Shown one piece after another: positions 814 to 50,248 of a DNA stretch of 50,423 nucleotides. Source of the DNA: Candidatus Thalassarchaeum sp. (lineage in GTDB: Archaea > Thermoplasmatota > Poseidoniia > Poseidoniales > Thalassarchaeaceae); contig CBFHQW010000001.1 in the NCBI GenBank assembly GCA_965658085.1, forward strand, positions 1 through 50,423, read 5' to 3'. The notes beneath the pieces were generated by a model. It searched no databases. It was not told where the DNA came from and saw only the letters and a list, made by a program, of their open reading frames with translations. The position numbers were made by a program, and so were the translations under genes. Every line of letters starts with the position of its first letter. Within the stretch, counting starts at the first letter, position 1.

Positions 814-3800
814 GTGATATCGATGCTCGACTCTCAACTTAGCAGGTGGAACTCTCTGTCTCGAGGGAGTCGTAGGACGGCCATCGCGCTGCTTATCATC
901 ATAGACGCCAATATAGGTCTACTGAACGGCTGGGGCCTACTCAATCTGTTAGACTCCCTCTCTGGGGGCAATGTACCCAATGATATGGTCTGGCTGCTGC
1001 AGGTCATCGAGTCAATTTCAGGCGGATTCTTCCTAGTCAAGATCCTATTCGACGATGTTCCTGCAAGTTGGCCAAGATCGATTGCCATCGCCTTGTCGCC
1101 GATATTCCTGTTGTTCATGGTGGGCATGAGTCTTGACAATTTATTCAAGGGCCTGAATGACGACGTCAGACTAACTCTCGACCTCATCTCCATAGGCACA
1201 TCAACACTCACATGGTCATCGACCTATCTCGCAATCGCAGTCGGACTGACTCTCACTTACAAGGTCCAGCGCTACGGTAACTTTGCCCAAAGTGAGTTCT
1301 TCATGCTCGGCATGTATCTCTCTATGGTCATGGTCTGGTCTGACTACTTCTTCCCGATGTACGATGCACCTCTGGACGGCACTCTGGCATGGTCTGTCCT
1401 TCTCTGGACGCTTGTTGCCGCTTTCGTACTCACCGGTCTTGCTGGTATCATCATCGACAGGCTCGTTTATCGCGGTTTCAGGAAGAAGGAAGCTTCACCG
1501 CAGGTGATGATGATCGCATCTCTAGGGGTGGCTCTAGCTCTGAGGGCCATCACCTACCTCCGCTTCGGCGCCGGCAAGAAGATGTTTGAGCCGGATGCTG
1601 ATTGGAGAGTCCCAACTCTGAGGTGGGACATACCGACCCAGAAACTGCGATTGAATCTAGGCGTTAGGGACCTCGAAGATGGCGATACATACACGCACGG
1701 TGGATGCGAGGCAGTAGGCACAGATGAGGCCGGTGCACCTCTGTATGAACATATCACGAGTGAGGGTAGCAAGCCACTGTTCGATATGTATAATCTAGCC
1801 AACGACTGTGTCACCGAGGCCACCACTGGCTACGCGTACTACAAGGGGGCAATCCCTGTCCTAGTATTCAGCTCCGTCATTCTGCTGCTGATTCTACTCA
1901 GGAAGACTCGCCTCGGGCGCAGAATGAGGGCAGTAGCCGACAACCCCGACCTAGCAGCCAGCAGTGGAATCAACGTCGAACGCATCCAACTAACAAGCGC
2001 ATTCCTGTCAGCAGGAATCTCAGGAATGGGAGGAGCCATCTTCGCAATGACCCTCAGATTCACCCCTGAGACCGCCTTCACTCTCTTACTACCTTCCTTT
2101 GCAGTCATCGTCCTCGGAACCATCGGCTCGATTCCTGGGGCCATAGTTGGCTCACTGATTGTCGGTTTCGTCAGAGCCCTCTCCTCACCTGTACTGATTG
2201 GAATAGGACTTCCTCTGGGGCGTTCCAACTATACTGCTCTAGACGGTGTGATGCCCTACGTCTTCCTTGTGGCAATACTCATGATTATGCCAGAAGGCAT
2301 CGGGTCGGCATGGGAGAAATGGAAAGTCGACAGGTTACGCAAACGAGCCGAGGAGAAACCATCCAAAAAATTGGGGGCGATTCTCGCCATATCTCCTTTG
2401 GGTGTACTGGGGGCGCATAACTTCCAGCAGAGAAAAAACGCCAGAGGCGAATCGATGATGATTGTGACCATCGGGGCCTATGTGTTCAGCAGAATCACCC
2501 GCTTCATTGCTGGCAACTCATTCGCCCAGGGATCCTGCTCCGCTGACTGCCAGGACTCTGGTTCAGTCGCAACTAACTTCGAGATGGTGACTGGCCGTAC
2601 CGATGGTGAATTCGTCCTCACTGACTCGCCATTTACAGAATCGGATGTCCAGAGTAGCCCGCCCAGTGATATGGACTCCACCGCTACAGAACAGTGGCTC
2701 GCAGACGCACTCGCCGATTTGAACAACTCATGGATGGACCTGATGAACACCGAACTTGGATTCGTCAACACCTTAGTGGACCTAGGCGACGTCATCTGGC
2801 CCACCGTCCCGATTTTGGTCTGGTTGATTGCTGTAATCGAGGGCTACTTCCTGTTTCAGGGTCGTGAAGATGACGCCTTGGAGCCACTAACTGACTTCAT
2901 CTCCAACCTGACCGCGCCTATCACCCAGTCTAGGAACTCTAGCTCGGTAGCCGTGACTCAGGCCCTTGGTTCGGCACGGGCCCCACTCGACTCGTTCCAC
3001 ACAACGATGTACAATAGCCTAGATAGTTTCCAGTCAGGATTCGACCGCAAAGGGAAGTACATGCTCCTAACCGTCTTGGTGATAATCCTCACCACGGCGG
3101 CTCCACCGTTCTTCGCAAGGGCCCTATTGATCCTACTGCTTCTGTGGATCGTCGGTCTCGCACTACTTGCTTGGAAGACGGGAGATCCTCCTCTGGGGGA
3201 ACTGAGGCGCCTAGCGCCGTATGGCAGAGAGAGCCCTTTCGGCTCGTGGGTCGCGTTCATCTCCCTACTGGTATTCCTGTTGCTGTTCGTCGAGTGGCTG
3301 CCGGTAGCAGAATCCGAGAATCAGACCTTCATCAAGACACTGCAAGTTTCCAATGTACTACTGACTCTCTCTATCTTCTCGCTGATGGCATTCGCTCTGA
3401 ACCTGCATACTGGCGTTACGGGGATGGTCAACTTCGGAATCATATTCTTCGTTGGGGTCGGGGCAATCACTGTGGGCATCTTGACCGCCCCCAAGGAGTT
3501 GCATGGCTACGACTGGCCAATCTTCTGGGCGGTCGTAGCAGGGGTGCTCCTGTCGGCCGTATTCGGCTGGTTATTGGCATATCCCACGGCCAGGCTCCGG
3601 ATGGACTACTTCGCCATCGTGACAATATCGCTCGGTGAGATTGTACGCGTGCTGCTGATGGGCGAGCCTTTGCTGAGAGCAGGTTCGTGGGGCTCGTCGA
3701 TAGGTATCTCGCGTTACCCTATGCCCTTCGAGCGCTGGTGGTTCTGTGGCAACACAGTTCCTAACAAGCTTCTCATGGGATCGGATTTTCTCTTTGGAAC

Positions 3801-4779
3801 TGCTGACGACATTATTGAGCCAATGACTCCTGATGATTGTGCTGATGTAGTCGGAATAGGAAGTCCCGCCGAGTTGCTGGGCCGCTCAAGTGGCGAGTTT
3901 ACAAATGTCGAAGTGTTAAATCATACATCAGGGTTTACTGACGTTTCCGATATTGTATATGAGGCGGCACCATACTCAATGGAGCTTGGCCAGCCAGCGC
4001 CCTACATGATGATGCTCGCCATCATAGGTATAGCCAGCCTGATTGCGATTTGGTGGCTTCTGGAGACGGTGCTGAAGTCGCCGTGGGGACGGATACTCCG
4101 TTCTATCAGGGAGGACGAGGAGGTCGCGCAGCACCACGGGCACGATGTATTGACGCACAAGGCGGCAAGCCTAGCACTCGGTGCTGCTATCGCAGGGTTT
4201 GCGGGAGCTCTTTGGGCTTGGAAACTCACAGGCTTCCAACCATCCTTCATGGCTCCTGCGAGATCCACATTCCTAGTCTGGGCCGCTTTCGTGATTGGCG
4301 GAGCGGCCAACAACAAGGGAATGATCATCGGCGCTTTCATCTACGTCATCATGGAATTCGTCTTCAATGTCCTAGTGGCTGGACAGGGCTCATCAGATCT
4401 CCCACTCAATGAAACTGCTGCCATGATCGATCGCTTCTTTGAGTGGATGGTAACAGGTAGTGAACTCTGGTTCTGGCCGCACTTCACTCCGTTAGAGACC
4501 TTCCTTGCGATTGTAGTGATAGGCCTCTTGACCAATAAATGGGGCATAGTCGAATCGGGTCTTTGTGGTGCCACAGTATTCGCCGCGAACTGGGTGCTCC
4601 TAGGTGAGCGCTCGATAGATGAGGGCTTCATCACCGGCGCAATTCTTGCTGACATGGCTTACGTCAAGGTCCTGCTGATTGGCTTGATGATAGTATTCTC
4701 ACTGAAGTACAACCCGAAGGGTCTGTTGCCCGAAGTCCCGAGCAGACCACCCCGTCGCACCGGAGGTGAAGCCGAATGA
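814..4779 (+). CDS. Fused LivH-LivM branched-chain amino acid ABC transporter permease with large insertions
   Basis: 1321-aa ORF. Residues ~140-505 are LivH-like (GLTLTYKVQRYGNFAQSEFFMLGMY; GRRMRAVADNPDLAASSGINV). Residues ~830-1300 are LivM-like (ALNLHTGVTGMVNFG; LRMDYFAIVTISLGEIVR; SPWGRILRSIREDEEVA). The stop overlaps the livG start (ATGA at 4776-4779). The start is uncertain: GTG 814 or ATG 823. Confidence 0.8.
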   Translation: MISMLDSQLSRWNSLSRGSRRTAIALLIIIDANIGLLNGWGLLNLLDSLSGGNVPNDMVWLLQVIESISGGFFLVKILFDDVPASWPRSIAIALSPIFLLFMVGMSLDNLFKGLNDDVRLTLDLISIGTSTLTWSSTYLAIAVGLTLTYKVQRYGNFAQSEFFMLGMYLSMVMVWSDYFFPMYDAPLDGTLAWSVLLWTLVAAFVLTGLAGIIIDRLVYRGFRKKEASPQVMMIASLGVALALRAITYLRFGAGKKMFEPDADWRVPTLRWDIPTQKLRLNLGVRDLEDGDTYTHGGCEAVGTDEAGAPLYEHITSEGSKPLFDMYNLANDCVTEATTGYAYYKGAIPVLVFSSVILLLILLRKTRLGRRMRAVADNPDLAASSGINVERIQLTSAFLSAGISGMGGAIFAMTLRFTPETAFTLLLPSFAVIVLGTIGSIPGAIVGSLIVGFVRALSSPVLIGIGLPLGRSNYTALDGVMPYVFLVAILMIMPEGIGSAWEKWKVDRLRKRAEEKPSKKLGAILAISPLGVLGAHNFQQRKNARGESMMIVTIGAYVFSRITRFIAGNSFAQGSCSADCQDSGSVATNFEMVTGRTDGEFVLTDSPFTESDVQSSPPSDMDSTATEQWLADALADLNNSWMDLMNTELGFVNTLVDLGDVIWPTVPILVWLIAVIEGYFLFQGREDDALEPLTDFISNLTAPITQSRNSSSVAVTQALGSARAPLDSFHTTMYNSLDSFQSGFDRKGKYMLLTVLVIILTTAAPPFFARALLILLLLWIVGLALLAWKTGDPPLGELRRLAPYGRESPFGSWVAFISLLVFLLLFVEWLPVAESENQTFIKTLQVSNVLLTLSIFSLMAFALNLHTGVTGMVNFGIIFFVGVGAITVGILTAPKELHGYDWPIFWAVVAGVLLSAVFGWLLAYPTARLRMDYFAIVTISLGEIVRVLLMGEPLLRAGSWGSSIGISRYPMPFERWWFCGNTVPNKLLMGSDFLFGTADDIIEPMTPDDCADVVGIGSPAELLGRSSGEFTNVEVLNHTSGFTDVSDIVYEAAPYSMELGQPAPYMMMLAIIGIASLIAIWWLLETVLKSPWGRILRSIREDEEVAQHHGHDVLTHKAASLALGAAIAGFAGALWAWKLTGFQPSFMAPARSTFLVWAAFVIGGAANNKGMIIGAFIYVIMEFVFNVLVAGQGSSDLPLNETAAMIDRFFEWMVTGSELWFWPHFTPLETFLAIVVIGLLTNKWGIVESGLCGATVFAANWVLLGERSIDEGFITGAILADMAYVKVLLIGLMIVFSLKYNPKGLLPEVPSRPPRRTGGEAE

Positions 4780-31918: not shown

Positions 31919-32761
31919 TTACTTCGGCTGGTGCATGTAGCAGTACTCGCTGGCTCGAAATGTTACCCTTCGACACTTCTTCCCATTCTTCTCCCCGATG
32001 TGCATGCAGTTAGTGTTCGCTCCTTTCGCAATCAACTCCGTTATTCCGGCCTTTTTCTTCTCTGCACTCTCTACCTTCCTCCGGGCTATCTCCTCCTCTC
32101 CATCTTCGACCGAAGTGCTTTGTTTGACAGTATTCATTTCCTTTGCATCGAACCAGAATGTGCCACAATCTTGACACCCATCGATTACCATTAGGTTTCC
32201 TTTTTTCGATTTGGAGGATTCAGCGGCTGCTGCTACCACCGCGATCACGGCAATACCCAGCAGGAGTCCAGCACCACCACCTCCGAGGCCGCCGATGTTT
32301 CCACCACCTCCCTCAGGGAGTTTGTAGGCCACTCTAATTTGTAGCATCAGAGCCTCACACCTAGGGCAATTCAGCGAGCATTCTTTGCCGTTCTCAAGGA
32401 GATCTTTGAGGGTCTCAGCGTGGTACGAAAGCTTAGTCTCCATCGACTTGGCATCGAGCATTGTACCTCTGCACTTATTGCAATAGTAGTGCCCATTATT
32501 GTATTCTGATCGGTAGGTGAGTTGGCCGCAGCCCCGAGGGCACTGGAGCTTCTCGATGTCCCCAAGCTGGGTCCTGTGTCCCTTGCAGAAGAGCGCCCCA
32601 GTCATTGCCTCTCTGAAGCAGGGCTTACCATTCCCCATCTTACCCATGCAGATCTTCACGGATGGGTCCTGAGCCCTGTGTTTCTTGCAGTAATCGGATT
32701 GGTACATCGATGGGCGCCCACAAACCGAACCATCCTCGTTGGAACCCTTGCACTTGGTCAT
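31919..32761 (-). CDS. Cysteine-rich multi-zinc-finger protein with a central Gly-rich/hydrophobic segment
   Basis: 18 Cys in 280 aa. Three C-x9/10-C-x10-C-x2-H modules (aa 4-28, 38-62, 252-277). A C-x3-C...C-x2-C ribbon (aa 74-97). A CPRC...CQDCGTFWFD ribbon interrupted by GGGGNIGGLGGGGAGLLLGIAVIAVVAAAA. Confidence 0.6.
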   Translation of the reverse strand: MTKCKGSNEDGSVCGRPSMYQSDYCKKHRAQDPSVKICMGKMGNGKPCFREAMTGALFCKGHRTQLGDIEKLQCPRGCGQLTYRSEYNNGHYYCNKCRGTMLDAKSMETKLSYHAETLKDLLENGKECSLNCPRCEALMLQIRVAYKLPEGGGGNIGGLGGGGAGLLLGIAVIAVVAAAAESSKSKKGNLMVIDGCQDCGTFWFDAKEMNTVKQSTSVEDGEEEIARRKVESAEKKKAGITELIAKGANTNCMHIGEKNGKKCRRVTFRASEYCYMHQPK

Positions 32762-44165: not shown

Positions 44166-45284
44166 TCAATTCACGAACTCGACAGTTCGGTCCCTGAGGT
44201 TGCGTATCTGAGTGTGTCGCGAAGCTCCGTCTATCTGCTCACTCTTCACGCCAGTCAGCACGAGCAGGACCCTGATATTGTCCCCCATGGTGTCATCAGT
44301 AGTAGCGCCCCAGATGATTCGAGCATAGGGATTCACCTTTTCGCGAATCAGCTTGGCGCACAGTTCGGCGTCTCCAAGTGACAGAGTAGGCCCGCCGACC
44401 ACATTTACCAGCGCTCCTCGGGCATCGGAAATGTCTATGTCGAGCAGAGGCGATTCTAGAGCCTCCTCGGTGGCTTTCTCGGCCCTACCTTCACCGTGAG
44501 CCTCTCCGAGTCCAATGACCGCCACTCCTCCCCCGTTTTCCATCACGGAGCGCAGGTCTTGGAAGTCGAGGTTGACAACACCCTCCTTAGAAAGCATCTC
44601 AGAGACTCCTGAAATACTCCTCATCAACAATTCGTCTGCGACGCGGAATGCAGCATCGAGTGGGAGGTCACGAACCCCCTCGATCTCGAGAAGACGCTCG
44701 TTAGGCAGTACGACCACTGTGTCGCACACCTCCCGCAATCTTTCCAAGCCCCATTCTGCATTCTGCTTCCGCAGCGCCCCCTCTGACATGAAGGGATAAC
44801 TCACCACAGCGATGGTCAAAGCTCCGGCCGATTTGGCCAACCGAGCAACTACATGCGCACTCCCTGTCCCAGTGCCACCTCCCAGTCCCGCTGTGATGAA
44901 TGCCAAATCGCAGTTTTCAATCTCCGTCTTGAGCGCGCGTTCAGACTCGTATGCAGCCTGCTCGCCTTTCTCCGGGTCGCCACCAGCGCCCCTACCTCTG
45001 GCAGAGCGCCCAATTAGCACCTTGTCCCGGACATTGACCCTCAACAGGTGTTGGGCGTCAGTGTTGACCGCCAGCCCCCTGACATATGTCCCGTCGAACA
45101 CACCTTCGAGCTCTAGCCTTGCTACGGTGTTGGAACCGCACCCTCCACAGCCGAACACACGTATCTTGGGCTGCAGTGATTTGAGTAGGTTCTTCAGTTC
45201 CGCATCGTTCTTCCTGTCGTTCAAGTCGTTAGGTATGACATTGTCATCTCTGTCAGCCAGAGCCCTCTCGACGATGAAGTCCAC
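44166..45284 (-). CDS. ftsZ: Cell division GTPase FtsZ
   Basis: GCGGCGSN and the tubulin signature GLGGGTGTGS. GTG start at 45284. Confidence 0.92.
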   Translation of the reverse strand: MDFIVERALADRDDNVIPNDLNDRKNDAELKNLLKSLQPKIRVFGCGGCGSNTVARLELEGVFDGTYVRGLAVNTDAQHLLRVNVRDKVLIGRSARGRGAGGDPEKGEQAAYESERALKTEIENCDLAFITAGLGGGTGTGSAHVVARLAKSAGALTIAVVSYPFMSEGALRKQNAEWGLERLREVCDTVVVLPNERLLEIEGVRDLPLDAAFRVADELLMRSISGVSEMLSKEGVVNLDFQDLRSVMENGGGVAVIGLGEAHGEGRAEKATEEALESPLLDIDISDARGALVNVVGGPTLSLGDAELCAKLIREKVNPYARIIWGATTDDTMGDNIRVLLVLTGVKSEQIDGASRHTQIRNLRDRTVEFVN

Positions 45285-45371
45285 GAGGCCGAGGCGAGTC
45301 GTAGAGAGGATAACCGTTACCCCCCGCCTTCGGCGGGCAAGGCGTGTTTCATCGGGGCGGCTACAAGGCCA

Positions 45372-46052
45372 CTATCTCAGCAACTGGTTCCGTGTACTGA
45401 TGAAGCGGGAGAGGAATGTGTATACTCCTCCCCAAGCGGAGATGGCAAGAGTGGCCGTCATGCCGTTGAGGTTACTATTTCCCAGCATGACCCAACTGGC
45501 GTAGCCTGCGTCCGAGAGATCAATACCAACTCCTCCAGAGTAAGCCTGCCAAGAAGCGGCGACCAAACAGGCCACCGTCAGTACCATGCGGTCAGCGCGA
45601 CCGAAGCCACCGTAGATTCTGTCGAGTCCGACTGACTGAGCCTGAGTCCCCATGTAGGAGCCGAACAAGGTCAGCACCGCTGCCACAGCCCCCGAGCTCG
45701 GATCACTGACAAAAGTCGCGTTCATCCCTATCGCAATGAGTAAACCTACGTCGACAACCCTGTCGATGGTGTGGTCGAGGAAGTCTCCGTACGGTCCAGC
45801 CACTCCCTGATGACGTGCCAGAGCACCGTCAAGCGCGTCGAGAACGCCGGCAAGTAGTATCAGCAAGACGGAGGCTCCAATCATGATTGCACCGTTATTG
45901 TCGAGGGCAGCCTCTGAAATCAGCCAGAAGGCGCCGAGAGCGAGGATTAGACTAGCCCAAGTCAGGATACTAGGGTCAAGACTCCCCATTTTCAGGACTA
46001 ATGGCTCGATTGCCTTAGTCCAGGTTCCTCTCATCCTCTCAAACACCGTCAC
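45372..46052 (-). CDS. CDP-alcohol phosphatidyltransferase (archaetidylinositol-phosphate or archaetidylserine synthase-like)
   Basis: DALDGALARHQGVAGPYGDFLDHTIDRVVD matches D-x2-DG-x2-AR-x8-G-x3-D-x3-D. Multiple TM helices. GTG 46052 overlaps the upstream stop. Confidence 0.8.
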   Translation of the reverse strand: MTVFERMRGTWTKAIEPLVLKMGSLDPSILTWASLILALGAFWLISEAALDNNGAIMIGASVLLILLAGVLDALDGALARHQGVAGPYGDFLDHTIDRVVDVGLLIAIGMNATFVSDPSSGAVAAVLTLFGSYMGTQAQSVGLDRIYGGFGRADRMVLTVACLVAASWQAYSGGVGIDLSDAGYASWVMLGNSNLNGMTATLAISAWGGVYTFLSRFISTRNQLLR

Positions 46053-46618
46053 TCCTCCATCCTGGCTACCCAGTCAATCAGCGAGCCCGGGCTAGCCGGC
46101 TTGAAGCCATCTGCTATCCAGTTGGAAAGCGAGTCGACGACTGAGTCGACGCTGCCATGCGAAGTATCGAATTCACACCATGGGGTATCGCCCTCGCGCT
46201 CGTTCCAAGCCCCTCCTAGTAACTCCCACTCGCAGTTTGCCTGCACTTTCTCGGCCGTGTAACCTCTACTCGTGAGTCTAGAGTCTAGAATCTCTGGCGA
46301 GCAGCGCAGTACGGCCACCGCATCACAAGGCAGATGATGAGAGAGGTGACCGTCCACCACTACGGTCCCTTCAGGAGGAGATTCCCACTCAGGAGCGAGC
46401 GCATCATGCAATGCGTCAGTGTCGATGACCCTCGCCCCGTCGGCTGGATCGGCCTCACCTAGCAAACCGTTCTGCTCGGCTAGAGATTCTACTGAAACTA
46501 CGATACATCCACCATCGGATAGCATCTGTGCCACTGTGCTCTTTCCAGTCCCGGGCGTGCCGGTCAGGGCCAGTCGGAAGCCTCCGCTCACATTCCGACC
46601 GGCCAGTAGGGATACCAT
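46049..46618 (-). CDS. AK6/Fap7-type adenylate kinase / NTPase
   Basis: LTGTPGTGKST, ...VVDGHLSHHL..D.VAVLRC.P..L..RL..RGY. ATG 46618 preferred. Confidence 0.7.
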   Translation of the reverse strand: MVSLLAGRNVSGGFRLALTGTPGTGKSTVAQMLSDGGCIVVSVESLAEQNGLLGEADPADGARVIDTDALHDALAPEWESPPEGTVVVDGHLSHHLPCDAVAVLRCSPEILDSRLTSRGYTAEKVQANCEWELLGGAWNEREGDTPWCEFDTSHGSVDSVVDSLSNWIADGFKPASPGSLIDWVARMEE

Positions 46619-46672
46619 CAACGCTACGCGTGGCAGGCGCAATATTGACCATCCTCCCACACCGCGGTCAGT

Positions 46673-47818
46673 TTGAGCCACATGTCTGAAGGAGAAACTA
46701 GCTGGGTCCGAGCGATGGACCCTAGGGATACCAAACTCAACCTTCTACTACTAGCCCTGCCGGTAACTTGCTACTTCGCGTACATCGCGCATGACGAGTC
46801 CATGGCCTTCATGTTCTCTCTTCTAGCGATTATGCCACTGGCTTTCTTGATGGGTAGAGCAACTGAGGAGATTGCGCTCTATACATCAGAATCCTTGGGT
46901 GGATTACTCAATGCAACTTTTGGAAATGCTGCTGAGATGATAATCGCTTTACTCGCAATTTATACAGCATCGCAAGCAGTCTCTGGAAGTGATACAGAGA
47001 CACTCATGATTGGTCTAGTACAAGCCAGCCTAATCGGTAGTATTCTTGGAAATCTACTACTCGTGATGGGTCTTGCATTTTTGTGGGGGGGAATCAATTT
47101 CCCCGAGCAGAAATTCTCTGAAACTCAGGTCAGTTCCAACGGTTCACTGATGATGTTAGCGATGATTGTACTAATCATTCCAACCGTATTCAACTCAACC
47201 GTAGGGGGAACCGAGGGTGAAGAAGGCGTCATGCAACTAAGCCACGTAGCAGCAATCGTACTCCTTTTGTTGTACGGATTATTCCTTTACTTCCAGTTCA
47301 AGTCTCACGTGGATCTATTCGCTACAGAGACACATGACCATGAAGCGCCTGAGATGAGTAAGCGTGATGCCATTATTCTCTTAGTTGTCGCTACAATTCT
47401 AGTTTCTTGGATGGCCGAGATTCTTGTTCATTCGGTAGAATATGCTGCCTCGGATGAAGGACTGGGCCTTCCCCACTTATTCATTGGAGTGATTCTACTC
47501 CCTCTATTCGGTAACGCGGCCGAGCACTTCACCGCCGTGGTAGTTGCGGGCAAGGACAAGATGGATCTCTCCTTTGCCATCTCGATGGGCTCATCAACTC
47601 AGATCGCAGTCTTTGTAGCTCCAATGATGATTCTCGTGGCATGGGCATTGAATGTACCATTAACTTTCGAGTTTGGAATGCTAGAGACTGTATCTGCATT
47701 CCTAGCCGTACTAATTGTGAATATCATAGCTTCAGACGGCAAATCGAACTGGCTAGAAGGAGCAATGCTGCTTGGCACCTACGCGGTCTTAGGTGCAGCC
47801 TTCATGTTCCATCCCTGA
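46673..47818 (+). CDS. Ca2+/H+ antiporter (CaCA/CAX family)
   Basis: Two alpha-repeats, GNAAEMIIAL and GNAAEHFTAV, and about 11 TM helices. Possible starts: 46673, 46682 or 46715. Confidence 0.85.
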   Translation: MSHMSEGETSWVRAMDPRDTKLNLLLLALPVTCYFAYIAHDESMAFMFSLLAIMPLAFLMGRATEEIALYTSESLGGLLNATFGNAAEMIIALLAIYTASQAVSGSDTETLMIGLVQASLIGSILGNLLLVMGLAFLWGGINFPEQKFSETQVSSNGSLMMLAMIVLIIPTVFNSTVGGTEGEEGVMQLSHVAAIVLLLLYGLFLYFQFKSHVDLFATETHDHEAPEMSKRDAIILLVVATILVSWMAEILVHSVEYAASDEGLGLPHLFIGVILLPLFGNAAEHFTAVVVAGKDKMDLSFAISMGSSTQIAVFVAPMMILVAWALNVPLTFEFGMLETVSAFLAVLIVNIIASDGKSNWLEGAMLLGTYAVLGAAFMFHP

Positions 47819-47886
47819 ACATTGAGTAGTGGATTCTGTATGATGGATGCAGAGGATTCAATGAGTATGAGCAACAGGAGAAGACC

Positions 47887-48597
47887 GTGAGCTCAGACAA
47901 TTCCACCAGCCCGCAACAGCGAGCACTTGCCATGTCTGTACATCTGGGCACGGCTTCCGGCGCGCTTTGGGCACTACTTTCTTTGGAAGCGATTTTTGTC
48001 GAAGACTACCGGACCGCCTTCTTCTGGATGTTCCTAGCAATGGTGGTTGATTCAGTAGATGGGCCCCTGGCTAGGAAGCTCGATGTCAAGCGTCATGCGC
48101 CACAGATTGATGGAGCACGACTTGACGACATCATCGACTACATCAACTACACTTTTGTCCCCATTGTCCTCCTAATCCATGCCGAATGGATCCCTGACCC
48201 AGTCTCGCTATGGGCAGCCGTCCCACTCATCGCGAGCGCCCTAGCGTTCACCAACACCGAATCCAAAGACACCGAGGAAGGCTTCTTCCTCGGCTTTCCT
48301 TCCTATTGGAATGTCTTCGCCTTCTACGTCGTAGTCGCAGCTCCCCCTGGCAGCGAGTGGTACGTGCTCCTACTGACATTAGCACTCAGTGCACTGAGCG
48401 TGATGCCAGTCCGCTTTGTCTACCCGAATCGATTCGACCGATTGCGCTGGTTCTTCATCGGTGGCGGCATTGTTTGGATAGCATCACTACTACTCATTGC
48501 CACACTATACCCGGACGCTCCGCGGCTGCTGGTGTTCGCTTCGATGTCTTATCCAGTGCTGTATCTCGGGCTATCGCTGTGGCTAGATAGGGATTGA
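47887..48597 (+). CDS. pcs: Phosphatidylcholine synthase-like CDP-alcohol phosphatidyltransferase
   Basis: SVHLGTASGALWAL..., FWMFLAMVVDSVDGPLARKLDVKRHAPQIDGARLDDIIDYINYTFVP, FFLGFPSYWNV and FVYPNRFDRLR align closely with rhizobial Pcs as I remember it. GTG start. Confidence 0.7.
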   Translation: MSSDNSTSPQQRALAMSVHLGTASGALWALLSLEAIFVEDYRTAFFWMFLAMVVDSVDGPLARKLDVKRHAPQIDGARLDDIIDYINYTFVPIVLLIHAEWIPDPVSLWAAVPLIASALAFTNTESKDTEEGFFLGFPSYWNVFAFYVVVAAPPGSEWYVLLLTLALSALSVMPVRFVYPNRFDRLRWFFIGGGIVWIASLLLIATLYPDAPRLLVFASMSYPVLYLGLSLWLDRD

Positions 48598-48598
48598 A

Positions 48599-50248
48599 TC
48601 ATTCCCTACCTACAACTCTATTCTTGTAAGCAGAGTAGTTTCCAGGCCAGACAATTAGGTTTCCATCTCCTTGTAAATCCCAAATTGTGTCACACACTTT
48701 ATCTAGGAAAAATCGGTCATGACTTACCGCGATAATACCTCCATCAAACTCATTCAAAGCAATCTCGAGAGCCTCCTTTGCATCTGTGTCCAAGTGGTTT
48801 GTGGGTTCATCGAGCAAAAGCATATTATTTTCCTCAAGCAGGAGCCTAAGTAGAGCCACTCTGGCCCTTTCACCACCACTAAGTTTGCTAAGTGGAGTTG
48901 TGACCATTTCCTTTGTGAATTGAAACTGCCCAAGAAGTGCCCGCAATTCACCATACTCCATTCTAGGTTTCAATTTCTGAACCTCTTCGATTGGAGTGAG
49001 TTCAAAATTCAAGGATCTATGGTCTTGATGGAAGTACCCGATTTGCACCCCGGGACTGATTTCTATTTTCCCTGAATCAAGAGTTAACTCACCTGTTATG
49101 AGTCTAAGGAGAGTGGTCTTGCCTACTCCATTTGGACCTATTACGCCTATCTTTTGACCCCTGCGGACACTTACTCCCAAATCCTGAATTATTGGTTTTG
49201 AAAGAGACTCAAAGGATAAGTTCGCATCACGGAACTCCAATACCTCCAGACTACTCTTCTCTGCAGATTGGAGATTGAAATTTAGACTCTGACGCTGCTT
49301 CGGCTTCAAAGATTTTAGCCATTTTAACTCTCTTTGGGAACGTGCAATCATGAAATGTTTCTGAGATACTGACTTGTCGAACTTGTTAGCTCTCTTCATC
49401 GATTGCATAGCTCCTTTAAGACGCTTAATTTCCTTCTGTGTCTTTACGATTCGATCATTCAATGTCCGTAGGAAGATTTCCTTCTGTTTCAGAAACGACG
49501 TGTAGTTTCCTGGATAGGCACGAAGATGAGAATCCTGAATCTCGACGATGTTATTGCAGACCCTATCGAGGAAATACCTGTCATGGCTAACTATCATCAG
49601 TGCACCCTCAAATCTGTTTAGGAACCTCTCAAGCCACTCTAGAGTATTGAAGTCAAGGTGATTCGTTGGCTCATCAAGGAAGAAAACATCAATTTGACTT
49701 AGACCGACCAGTTGTCTGGCAAGAGCAACTTTTGCACGCTCACCACCAGAGAGAGATTTTAGTGGCACCTCCATCGAGTTTTGATCTAGATTCAGTGCCT
49801 TGAGAATCTCCTGAGCATGCCCGGCGACGTCGCCCCCACCGGATCGAGCCATCAAACTCTGTAACTCCTGATATCTTTCCATGTCTGGTTGCCAGTCGCC
49901 ATCATAGAACGATGGTTTCCCCATTTTTTCTTCGAGTTCAGAGATTTCTTCTTCTAGTTCTAGAAACTGCCTTCCTCTGCGATTGAGCTCCTGCCTGAGA
50001 GTCGCACCGTCGTCTATGTCTCTAATTTGTGTTAGAAAGGCGAGCCTCAATGCCGGGGCGAATGAAATGTCTCCAAGATCTTGATCTTGGTTACTGATAG
50101 TTCTGAGGAGTGTAGTTTTTCCAGATCCATTGTGCCCTATTACGCCAATACGATTACCTTCGTCAATGCGTAAATTTACTCCCTCTAGAACTGTCAGTGG
50201 ACCAAAGGCCCTGTGAACTTCTTCAAGGCGAATCAGCTCTCTGGCCAC
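48599..50248 (-). CDS. ABC-F family ATPase (two ABC domains, no TM domain)
   Basis: Domain 1: GHNGSGKTT / LSGGERAKVAL / FFLDEPTNHLD. Inter-domain linker: GNYTSFLKQKE...KEIKRLK. Domain 2: GPNGVGKTT / LSGGERARVAL / LLLDEPTNHLD. C-terminal GNYSAY. GTG start preceded by GGAGAGG. Confidence 0.88.
   Translation of the reverse strand: MARELIRLEEVHRAFGPLTVLEGVNLRIDEGNRIGVIGHNGSGKTTLLRTISNQDQDLGDISFAPALRLAFLTQIRDIDDGATLRQELNRRGRQFLELEEEISELEEKMGKPSFYDGDWQPDMERYQELQSLMARSGGGDVAGHAQEILKALNLDQNSMEVPLKSLSGGERAKVALARQLVGLSQIDVFFLDEPTNHLDFNTLEWLERFLNRFEGALMIVSHDRYFLDRVCNNIVEIQDSHLRAYPGNYTSFLKQKEIFLRTLNDRIVKTQKEIKRLKGAMQSMKRANKFDKSVSQKHFMIARSQRELKWLKSLKPKQRQSLNFNLQSAEKSSLEVLEFRDANLSFESLSKPIIQDLGVSVRRGQKIGVIGPNGVGKTTLLRLITGELTLDSGKIEISPGVQIGYFHQDHRSLNFELTPIEEVQKLKPRMEYGELRALLGQFQFTKEMVTTPLSKLSGGERARVALLRLLLEENNMLLLDEPTNHLDTDAKEALEIALNEFDGGIIAVSHDRFFLDKVCDTIWDLQGDGNLIVWPGNYSAYKNRVVGRE

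Follow-up and report, generated by a model that had tools for sequence, protein, structure and literature searches.

The 50,423-nucleotide stretch of DNA analysed here (the window; positions 1 to 50,423 of contig CBFHQW010000001.1) comes from a genome of Candidatus Thalassarchaeum sp. and encodes, at 47887..48597 on the forward strand, a 236-residue CDP-alcohol phosphatidyltransferase of the phosphatidylcholine synthase (Pcs) family, whose gene we refer to as pcs. The gene is probably a functional, horizontally acquired Pcs that uses choline and, most likely, a CDP-archaeol-type donor to make an archaetidylcholine-like lipid. Its assignment draws on the open reading frame, the PF01066 domain, Pcs hidden Markov models (HMMs), a phylogenetic tree, an AlphaFold2 (AF2) model, and the ratio of nonsynonymous to synonymous substitution rates (dN/dS). 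The enzyme family itself is known; the novelty lies in a bacterial Pcs that has become established throughout much of one genus of archaea. The source genome (1.34 Mb in 136 contigs, 83% complete) and a metagenome-assembled genome (MAG) of Candidatus Thalassarchaeum betae belong to one GTDB genus, and their pcs orthologues are 86% identical. Marine Group II b (family Thalassarchaeaceae, order Poseidoniales) has T. betae as its type species (PMC6461757).

The reading frame begins with GTG, a start codon kept in six orthologues, and direct reading of the sequence places a putative ribosome-binding site, AGGAG (47876..47880, +), 7-11 nt upstream of it. The protein carries the catalytic motif D55-x2-D58-G59-x2-A62-R63-x12-G76-x3-D80-x3-D84 (48049..48138, +). 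This motif has the form DX2DGX2ARX12GX3DX3D, which was defined as the modified Pcs motif (PMC3972451), with the Pcs-type x12 spacing and not x8. Two further family signatures are present: GFFLGFPSYWN at residues 132-142 (48280..48312, +) and FVYPNRFDRLR at residues 177-187 (48415..48447, +). The initial annotation had named the reading frame, the extended CDP-alcohol motif, and the FFLGFPSYWN and FVYPxRxxRLR segments, all of which are confirmed in the sequence.

As calibration anchors we took, from annotated records, the pcs genes of S. meliloti, P. aeruginosa, and Legionella adelaidensis. Across 55 aligned sequences that include these three authenticated enzymes, 20 columns are invariant and the thalassarchaeal protein retains all 20 of them, among which are every motif residue, K127, F134, G136-F137-P138, W141-N142, and P180. 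Within GFFLGFPSYWN, F134, G136, F137, P138, W141, and N142 are invariant, with G132, F133, S139, and Y140 at least 90% conserved, while in FVYPNRFDRLR the invariant residue is P180, with conservation of at least 90% at F177 and Y179. When the 39 columns with at least 90% conservation in 47 bacterial rows are considered, eight archaeal rows retain 37; the exceptions are A126S, in five of the eight archaeal rows, and P72S, in one.

Profile searches place the protein in the same family. Over residues 36-167 it matches PF01066 of Pfam with 26.9 bits, where the cut-off is 22, and its top five NCBIfam models are the five Pcs models, which it matches at 123-153 bits over nearly the full length. The next NCBIfam family, archaetidylserine synthase, scores 34 bits, and the models for serine, inositol-phosphate, and glycerol-phosphate synthases all score at most 34 bits. 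Weighing against the assignment, the protein falls below every NCBIfam Pcs equivalog cut-off (NF045884-NF045888, 300-440 bits), with a best score of 152.9 bits against a cut-off of 440. Each of the anchors, however, passes the model of its own lineage only (437, 443, and 472 bits) and scores 119-182 bits with the models of other lineages. Because the anchors cross-score in this range, the 123-153 bits of the archaeal protein are what is expected of a genuine Pcs from an unmodelled lineage. Judged by its sequence, the protein is therefore outside all five NCBIfam Pcs lineages, yet it is not thereby barred from the family. Pairwise identities are 37% to the P. aeruginosa enzyme (residues 6-232), 31.5% to that of Legionella (2-232), and 35% to that of S. 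meliloti (9-197). The initial annotation had described a match to rhizobial Pcs along the whole length; this extent holds for the gammaproteobacterial enzymes but not for the rhizobial one, where the match covers about 80% of the length.

A maximum-likelihood tree of 92 rows was calculated with IQ-TREE under the LG+C20+F+G4 model, with Thermoplasmatota archaetidylserine synthases as outgroup. In this tree an 85-row Pcs family, including the three anchors, is split from the archaetidylserine synthases with support of 100/100. The six archaeal Pcs sequences are monophyletic (100/100) and nested within all-bacterial clades of 47 (100/100), 44 (97/88), and 12 rows (93/92). When the tree is rooted on the serine synthases, the branch that holds the S. 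meliloti and P. aeruginosa enzymes and then Legionella split off first, leaving the archaeal clade nested. In a quick tree with wider outgroups the Pcs family is rooted elsewhere, and because the root moved, the bracketing of the archaeal clade by characterised enzymes is not secure. The bacterial rows nearest to the archaeal clade are MAGs labelled Myxococcales or 'MYXO', together with marine sequences. The immediate sister pair of the clade (L017 and P0015) has support of only 72/69, so that any donor phylum named for pcs would be tentative. The sub-clade that holds the archaeal genes consists mostly of uncultured Myxococcota, Planctomycetota, and Acidobacteriota and, as a second point against the assignment, holds no assayed enzyme. 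HMM searches and a phylogeny had been proposed in the initial annotation as checks on its Pcs assignment, with a position outside the Pcs clade as the alternative outcome; in both analyses the protein falls with Pcs, by 123-153 bits against 34 for the next family and by its place inside the family among bacterial Pcs. On this evidence the pcs product is a member of the bacterial Pcs family, and the phylogeny shows a bacterial origin for the archaeal gene.

The AF2 model of the protein is confident (pLDDT 92.3, pTM 0.88) and predicts about eight long helices, including those at residues 9-37, 41-64, 76-98, 106-122, 141-172, 187-207, and 213-235. The catalytic motif falls on helices 2-3, and the GFFLGFPSYWN segment forms an aromatic-rich loop and helix start, with a short strand at 133-135 and a helix from residue 141. 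This loop is a candidate for the choline pocket. In a Foldseek search the best fold match in the Protein Data Bank (PDB) was 7POW, the phosphatidylserine synthase of M. jannaschii (E 5e-6, TM 0.59/0.67). A PDB sequence search with the Pcs family profile gave no match, so that relatives came from the fold search only, and the PDB copy searched contained no Pcs structure.

A bacterial gene in an archaeal assembly could be a contaminant, a product of mis-binning, or part of a chimera, and the nearest relatives of pcs outside the genus, among the matches listed, are indeed all bacterial with at most 56% identity. The 50-kb contig, however, also carries Spt5, a Sec61-gamma-type SecE, and FtsZ of archaeal type. 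The gene order in one independent assembly of the genus (G013:C44) is uL11 ... Spt5-SecE-FtsZ-AIPS-kinase-CaCA-pcs, where AIPS denotes a gene similar to archaetidylinositol-phosphate synthase and CaCA a Ca2+/H+ exchanger, and in another (G031:C42) it is kinase-CaCA-pcs. Since the source contig (G000:C1) and these two contigs independently link pcs to the kinase-AIPS-FtsZ-SecE-Spt5 cluster, pcs is physically archaeal. In addition, orthologues occur in six further species genomes and diverge in step with core genes, and the base composition of pcs is like that of its host: its GC content is 54.4% and its GC content at third codon positions (GC3) 60.8%, with neighbouring core genes at a GC3 of 58-64%. 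The initial annotation had recognised that a bacterial or chimeric contig would undo its proposal. We assign this explanation a vanishingly small probability and consider contamination or chimerism ruled out by synteny in three assemblies and by the orthologues in six species.

The distribution of pcs was examined by a protein search of 201 Poseidoniales genomes (24 genera) and of 401 Thermoplasmatota genomes (161 genera). Among these genomes the gene is confined to the source genus, where it is present in the source genome and in six of nine other genomes (7/10), with a deletion remnant in an eighth, and no copy was found in the 192 genomes from the 23 other Poseidoniales genera (0/192), by which we rejected pcs as an order-wide trait. 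Further matches in Thermoplasmatota came from only one genus (g79), with 28-31% identity; these proteins were rejected as Pcs, since NCBIfam identifies them as archaetidylserine synthases. A survey of relatives in genome contigs, which among archaea covered the Thermoplasmatota and listed the best 80 loci, separates identities of at most 56% outside the genus from at least 74% within it, and all named relatives outside the genus among the matches listed are bacteria. The acquisition of pcs is thus a horizontal one of a single genus and not a Marine Group II trait. Across the genus, identity to the source genome is 94%, 86%, and 77% for pcs, 94%, 78%, and 78% for AIPS, and 97%, 88%, and 89% for FtsZ, so that pcs diverges in step with both. 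Its dN/dS across six species is 0.07-0.14 at dS up to 1.8. The host-like GC content and this low dN/dS indicate an old, maintained horizontal acquisition, and the data fit a gene that was acquired once, long ago, close to the root of the genus and has since been inherited vertically while purifying selection maintained it.

The gene might instead be a neutral or decaying passenger in a flexible region, with no role in membrane synthesis. It occupies at least three different neighbourhoods within the genus: beside CaCA in G000, G013, and G031, 1.2 kb from an ABC-F gene in T. betae, and near glycosyltransferases in G161. No copy was found in three genus genomes that are 79-86% complete, and one genome retains only a remnant (G045:C1; L103 8769-9026, -), an 85-residue reading frame in which the N-terminal 79 residues stand in frame with the last six (DRQTVP). 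This internal deletion of ~155 codons removes D80, D84, and everything downstream, and pcs is therefore dispensable in at least this lineage, a point against the functional reading. The strength of purifying selection speaks against a passenger, as do the intact frames and conserved catalytic residues in six species and the more than 900 member sequences of related metagenome clusters, from which we take pcs to be common in ocean data. We therefore regard a passenger as very improbable and retain the interpretation of pcs as a maintained, functional gene.

In characterised Pcs, free choline reacts with a CDP-activated lipid with release of CMP, Mn2+ or Mg2+ is needed, and the motif aspartates are essential (PMC3972451). 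In the mechanism we propose, the thalassarchaeal protein would be an integral membrane protein of the Pcs family with about eight predicted helices, in which D55, D58, D80, and D84 on the second and third helices would hold divalent cations. These cations would position the pyrophosphate of the CDP-lipid for attack by the hydroxyl of free choline, and the reaction would release CMP and yield a choline phospholipid.

Bacterial relatives bear on the acceptor. At 6 of 98 bacterial pcs loci (L025, L016, L022, L026, L074, and L118) the gene adjoins a choline symporter of the CHT1/SLC5A7 type, the hosts being MAGs of Planctomycetaceae, Pirellulales, Acidobacteriota, and one other class. Two of these loci, L025 and L016, belong to the 47-row clade in which the archaeal genes are nested, and in the tree the symporter-coupled loci are found to either side of the archaeal clade. 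In L025, from a marine Planctomycetaceae MAG, the symporter (2515-4005, +) overlaps the start of pcs (3992-4705), whose product is 46% identical to the window protein; the symporter matches a bacterial choline transporter (PDB 9RWS) with E 3.5e-120 and human CHT1 with E 1.5e-97. We infer choline as the acceptor of the archaeal enzyme from the conservation of the family and from this linkage to choline transporters in bacterial relatives.

Choline supply is the weak side of this proposal. No choline importer was found in five pcs-positive genomes of the genus (BCCT 0/5, OpuAC 0/5, CHT-type 0/5 with one weak 27% match). The sole SSS transporter, present in all five, is generic and has no PDB relative; it occurs in 10 of the 13 genera of the family, most of them without pcs, and for this reason is not linked to pcs. 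A gene similar to GDPD is present in all five genomes, with weak matches of 33-40 bits, and its product could release choline from glycerophosphocholine. The missing importer would be compatible with an acceptor that shifted after transfer, for example to another amino alcohol, to serine, or to a sulfonium analogue, in which case the lipid would carry a non-choline head group; the immediate sub-clade lacks a characterised member and the closest solved structure is that of a serine-using enzyme. We think such a shift improbable given that the archaeal rows keep 37 of 39 conserved and 20 of 20 invariant columns with A126S and P72S as the only changes, that bacterial relatives to either side of the archaeal clade have choline-transporter genes coupled to pcs, and that serine-synthase models reach only 34 bits.

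The identity of the lipid donor, like the source of choline, is something that we infer here from a lipid-gene inventory of the same five genomes. Each has one CTP-transferase gene, whose product matches CarS-like PF01864 at 54+31 bits and, in the same place, CdsA-type PF01148 at 36 bits. Its only NCBIfam match is NF003114, the model for CDP-2,3-bis-(O-geranylgeranyl)-sn-glycerol synthase (CDP-archaeol synthase), at 121 bits, and a profile search found no CdsA in the five genomes. Geranylgeranylglyceryl phosphate synthase (GGGPS) was found in four of the five and glycerol-1-phosphate (G1P) dehydrogenase in none. In line with this absence, Poseidoniales have been reported to lack G1P dehydrogenase and to have glycerol-3-phosphate (G3P) dehydrogenase together with the remaining steps of the ether-lipid pathway, and Marine Group II has been reported to encode bacterial-like ester-bond genes (PMC6461757; PMC7852524). 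Bacterial PgsA and PssA accept archaeol derivatives (PMC5889666). The initial annotation had set choline head groups on archaeal lipids beside bacterial-type phospholipids and looked to CDP-archaeol and CDP-diacylglycerol synthase genes to tell them apart. The inventory yielded only a CarS-like synthase, without CdsA, and therefore favours attachment of choline to an archaeal-type CDP-lipid over a bacterial-type phospholipid. In our proposal, the CarS-like enzyme would supply a CDP-archaeol-type isoprenoid ether donor for synthesis of an archaetidylcholine-like lipid. A choline-bearing isoprenoid ether lipid made from such a donor is our tentative assignment for the product; its glycerol-backbone stereochemistry may be unusual, since the genomes lack G1P dehydrogenase.

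Several observations weigh against an ether donor and are consistent with the same enzyme, with choline as acceptor, using CDP-diacylglycerol, in which case the product would be an ester phosphatidylcholine indistinguishable from the bacterial or algal lipid. CDP-diacylglycerol is the native substrate of Pcs enzymes (PMC3972451), and the missing G1P dehydrogenase, the reported G3P dehydrogenase, and the reported bacterial-like ester-bond genes all agree with it. The CarS-like protein falls below the NF003114 cut-off (121 vs 148 bits). A field study of waters in which Marine Group II dominates detected diacyl phosphatidylcholine but no archaeol-based intact polar lipids (PMC6962369). A PlsC-like acyltransferase domain occurs in four of the five genomes, which speaks for an ester-lipid donor, but the match is weak (TIGR00530 at 27 bits, cut-off 103). 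One such protein (L157 640-2163, -; G013:C22) has 507 residues and matches PF01553 at about 40 bits ahead of a hydrophobic C-terminal half, and its gene is a candidate 'bacterial-like ester-bond gene' of the kind reported for Marine Group II. With no CdsA found, a single CTP-transferase that matches only the CDP-archaeol synthase model, and GGGPS present, we consider a CDP-diacylglycerol donor unlikely, although it deserves more weight than a shifted acceptor, and keep the CDP-archaeol-type donor as the preferred reading.

The closest known systems are the bacterial Pcs of S. meliloti (NF045884), P. aeruginosa (NF045887), and Legionella (PcsA, NF045886), which share with the thalassarchaeal protein the PF01066 domain, the motif, the GFFxGFPSYWN signature, the 20 family-invariant residues, a similar length (238-254 residues vs 236), about 8 predicted helices, and the same clade (100/100). 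The thalassarchaeal protein differs from these characterised enzymes in being encoded by an archaeon and is 31-37% identical to them, and its pathway differs in having a CarS-like protein and not CdsA as the source of the CDP-lipid and in that no ChoXWV, BetT, or CHT-type importer was found. Archaetidylserine/phosphatidylserine synthase is the native archaeal enzyme type that attaches a head group to CDP-archaeol. Its representative from M. jannaschii (7POW/7B1K; NF038087, TIGR04217) offers both the closest solved fold and the nearest HMM family outside Pcs, but the thalassarchaeal protein scores 34 bits with that family, is 17-19% identical to it in the structural comparison, has the x12 motif of Pcs in place of the x8 motif, and lies across a 100/100 branch. 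The Planctomycetota and Acidobacteriota pcs genes with a CHT1/SLC5A7-type symporter (such as L025) encode homologous Pcs of the same 47-row clade; in the five archaeal genomes searched this transporter was not found, and pcs stands beside CaCA in the three closest genomes. Eukaryotic CPT1/CEPT1 (PDB 8UL9) belongs to the same CDP-alcohol phosphotransferase superfamily and also makes a choline-headed product, but with reversed chemistry, from CDP-choline and diacylglycerol, and its structural match is insignificant (E 2.1). The archaetidylcholine of Methanopyrus kandleri is a choline-headed archaeal ether phospholipid, according to a reference given in PMC3426160. It is the same kind of product as that predicted here and is known as a lipid, not through a gene; M. 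kandleri is a hyperthermophilic methanogen, whereas Thalassarchaeum is a mesophilic planktonic heterotroph. In the literature that we searched, Pcs is treated as a bacterial pathway, and no paper ties it to archaea, Marine Group II, Poseidoniales, or Thalassarchaea. Some related metagenome proteins have already been labelled 'phosphatidylcholine synthase' automatically by annotation pipelines.

The genome encodes one other PF01066 protein, an AIPS-like CDP-alcohol phosphatidyltransferase at 45372..46052 (-). The initial annotation had pointed to a second, archaeal-type transferase at this position, and the gene is real: PF01066 matches at 38.9 bits and the closest NCBIfam model, that for archaetidylinositol-phosphate synthase, gives 98 bits, where 180 is the cut-off. 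At 44166-46681 of the window (-), the AIPS-like gene is tightly clustered with those for FtsZ and a putative kinase (AAA_18/PRK03839), with a 4-nt overlap between the AIPS and kinase reading frames. The cluster is kept in genera g6 and g8; in g9 the AIPS-like and kinase genes were matched, with no FtsZ match within the stretch examined there. Of the 36 Thalassarchaeaceae genomes surveyed, which span 13 genera, the majority contain just one PF01066 gene. In the genera examined this is the AIPS-like gene beside FtsZ, and Pcs is added in Thalassarchaeum only. The additional PF01066 genes of other genera (L126, L129-L131, L135-L136) are archaetidylserine-synthase-like (g2, g9), PgsA-like (g7), or divergent (g12, g13). 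The set of head-group transferases therefore seems to vary from genus to genus in Marine Group II b, and the predicted phospholipid head groups of Thalassarchaeum are inositol phosphate-derived and choline.

Upstream, pcs is flanked by the CaCA Ca2+/H+ exchanger gene (46673..47818, +), identified by TIGR00378 at 334 bits and by synteny, and the CaCA-pcs pair is common to G000, G013, and G031. The exchanger (L104 5247-6377 in G013) has a GC content of 47% and is 70% identical between G000 and G013, with flanking genes at 84-97%; on the margin of the conserved FtsZ cluster, this allele seems to have diverged locally or been replaced. Downstream and convergent with pcs lies an ABC-F ATPase gene (48599..50248, -), assigned from profile matches and synteny. 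Its GC content is 44%, compared with 54% for the window, and its counterparts are L014 5898-7538 and L100 9886-11535. The ABC-F proteins of G000 and T. betae are 95.8% identical, compared with 87.6% for FtsZ and 86% for pcs in the same pair, and this difference, together with the low GC content, suggests recent exchange of the ABC-F gene within the genus. In G161:C3, the genes that flank pcs (L102 7433-8398, -, and 8938-9753, -) encode a protein bearing two dockerin-like repeats (GDANDDGSVDLGDF...) and a membrane protein with a Cys-rich zinc ribbon; this membrane protein is a distant relative (30% identity) of the product of window reading frame 31919-32761.

Because pcs is restricted to one genus, its significance is limited, and the lipids of Marine Group II in general are not explained by it. 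To our knowledge, the membrane lipids of Marine Group II have never been identified. From the retention of Pcs in Thalassarchaeum, the type genus of Marine Group II b, choline head groups on ether or ester cores are predicted, which gives a definite starting point for work on the lipids of an archaeon that is abundant but uncultured. The gene can also be viewed as a natural experiment in which bacterial head-group enzymes meet archaeal CDP-lipids, and as such it bears on the debate over the 'lipid divide' and mixed membranes. If the donor is CDP-archaeol, pcs would be the first gene to define how a choline lipid is made in Archaea and a natural case of a bacterial head-group enzyme joined to an archaeal lipid pathway, and it would single out a particular lipid to be sought by mass spectrometry in a major Marine Group II lineage whose lipids have so far escaped detection.

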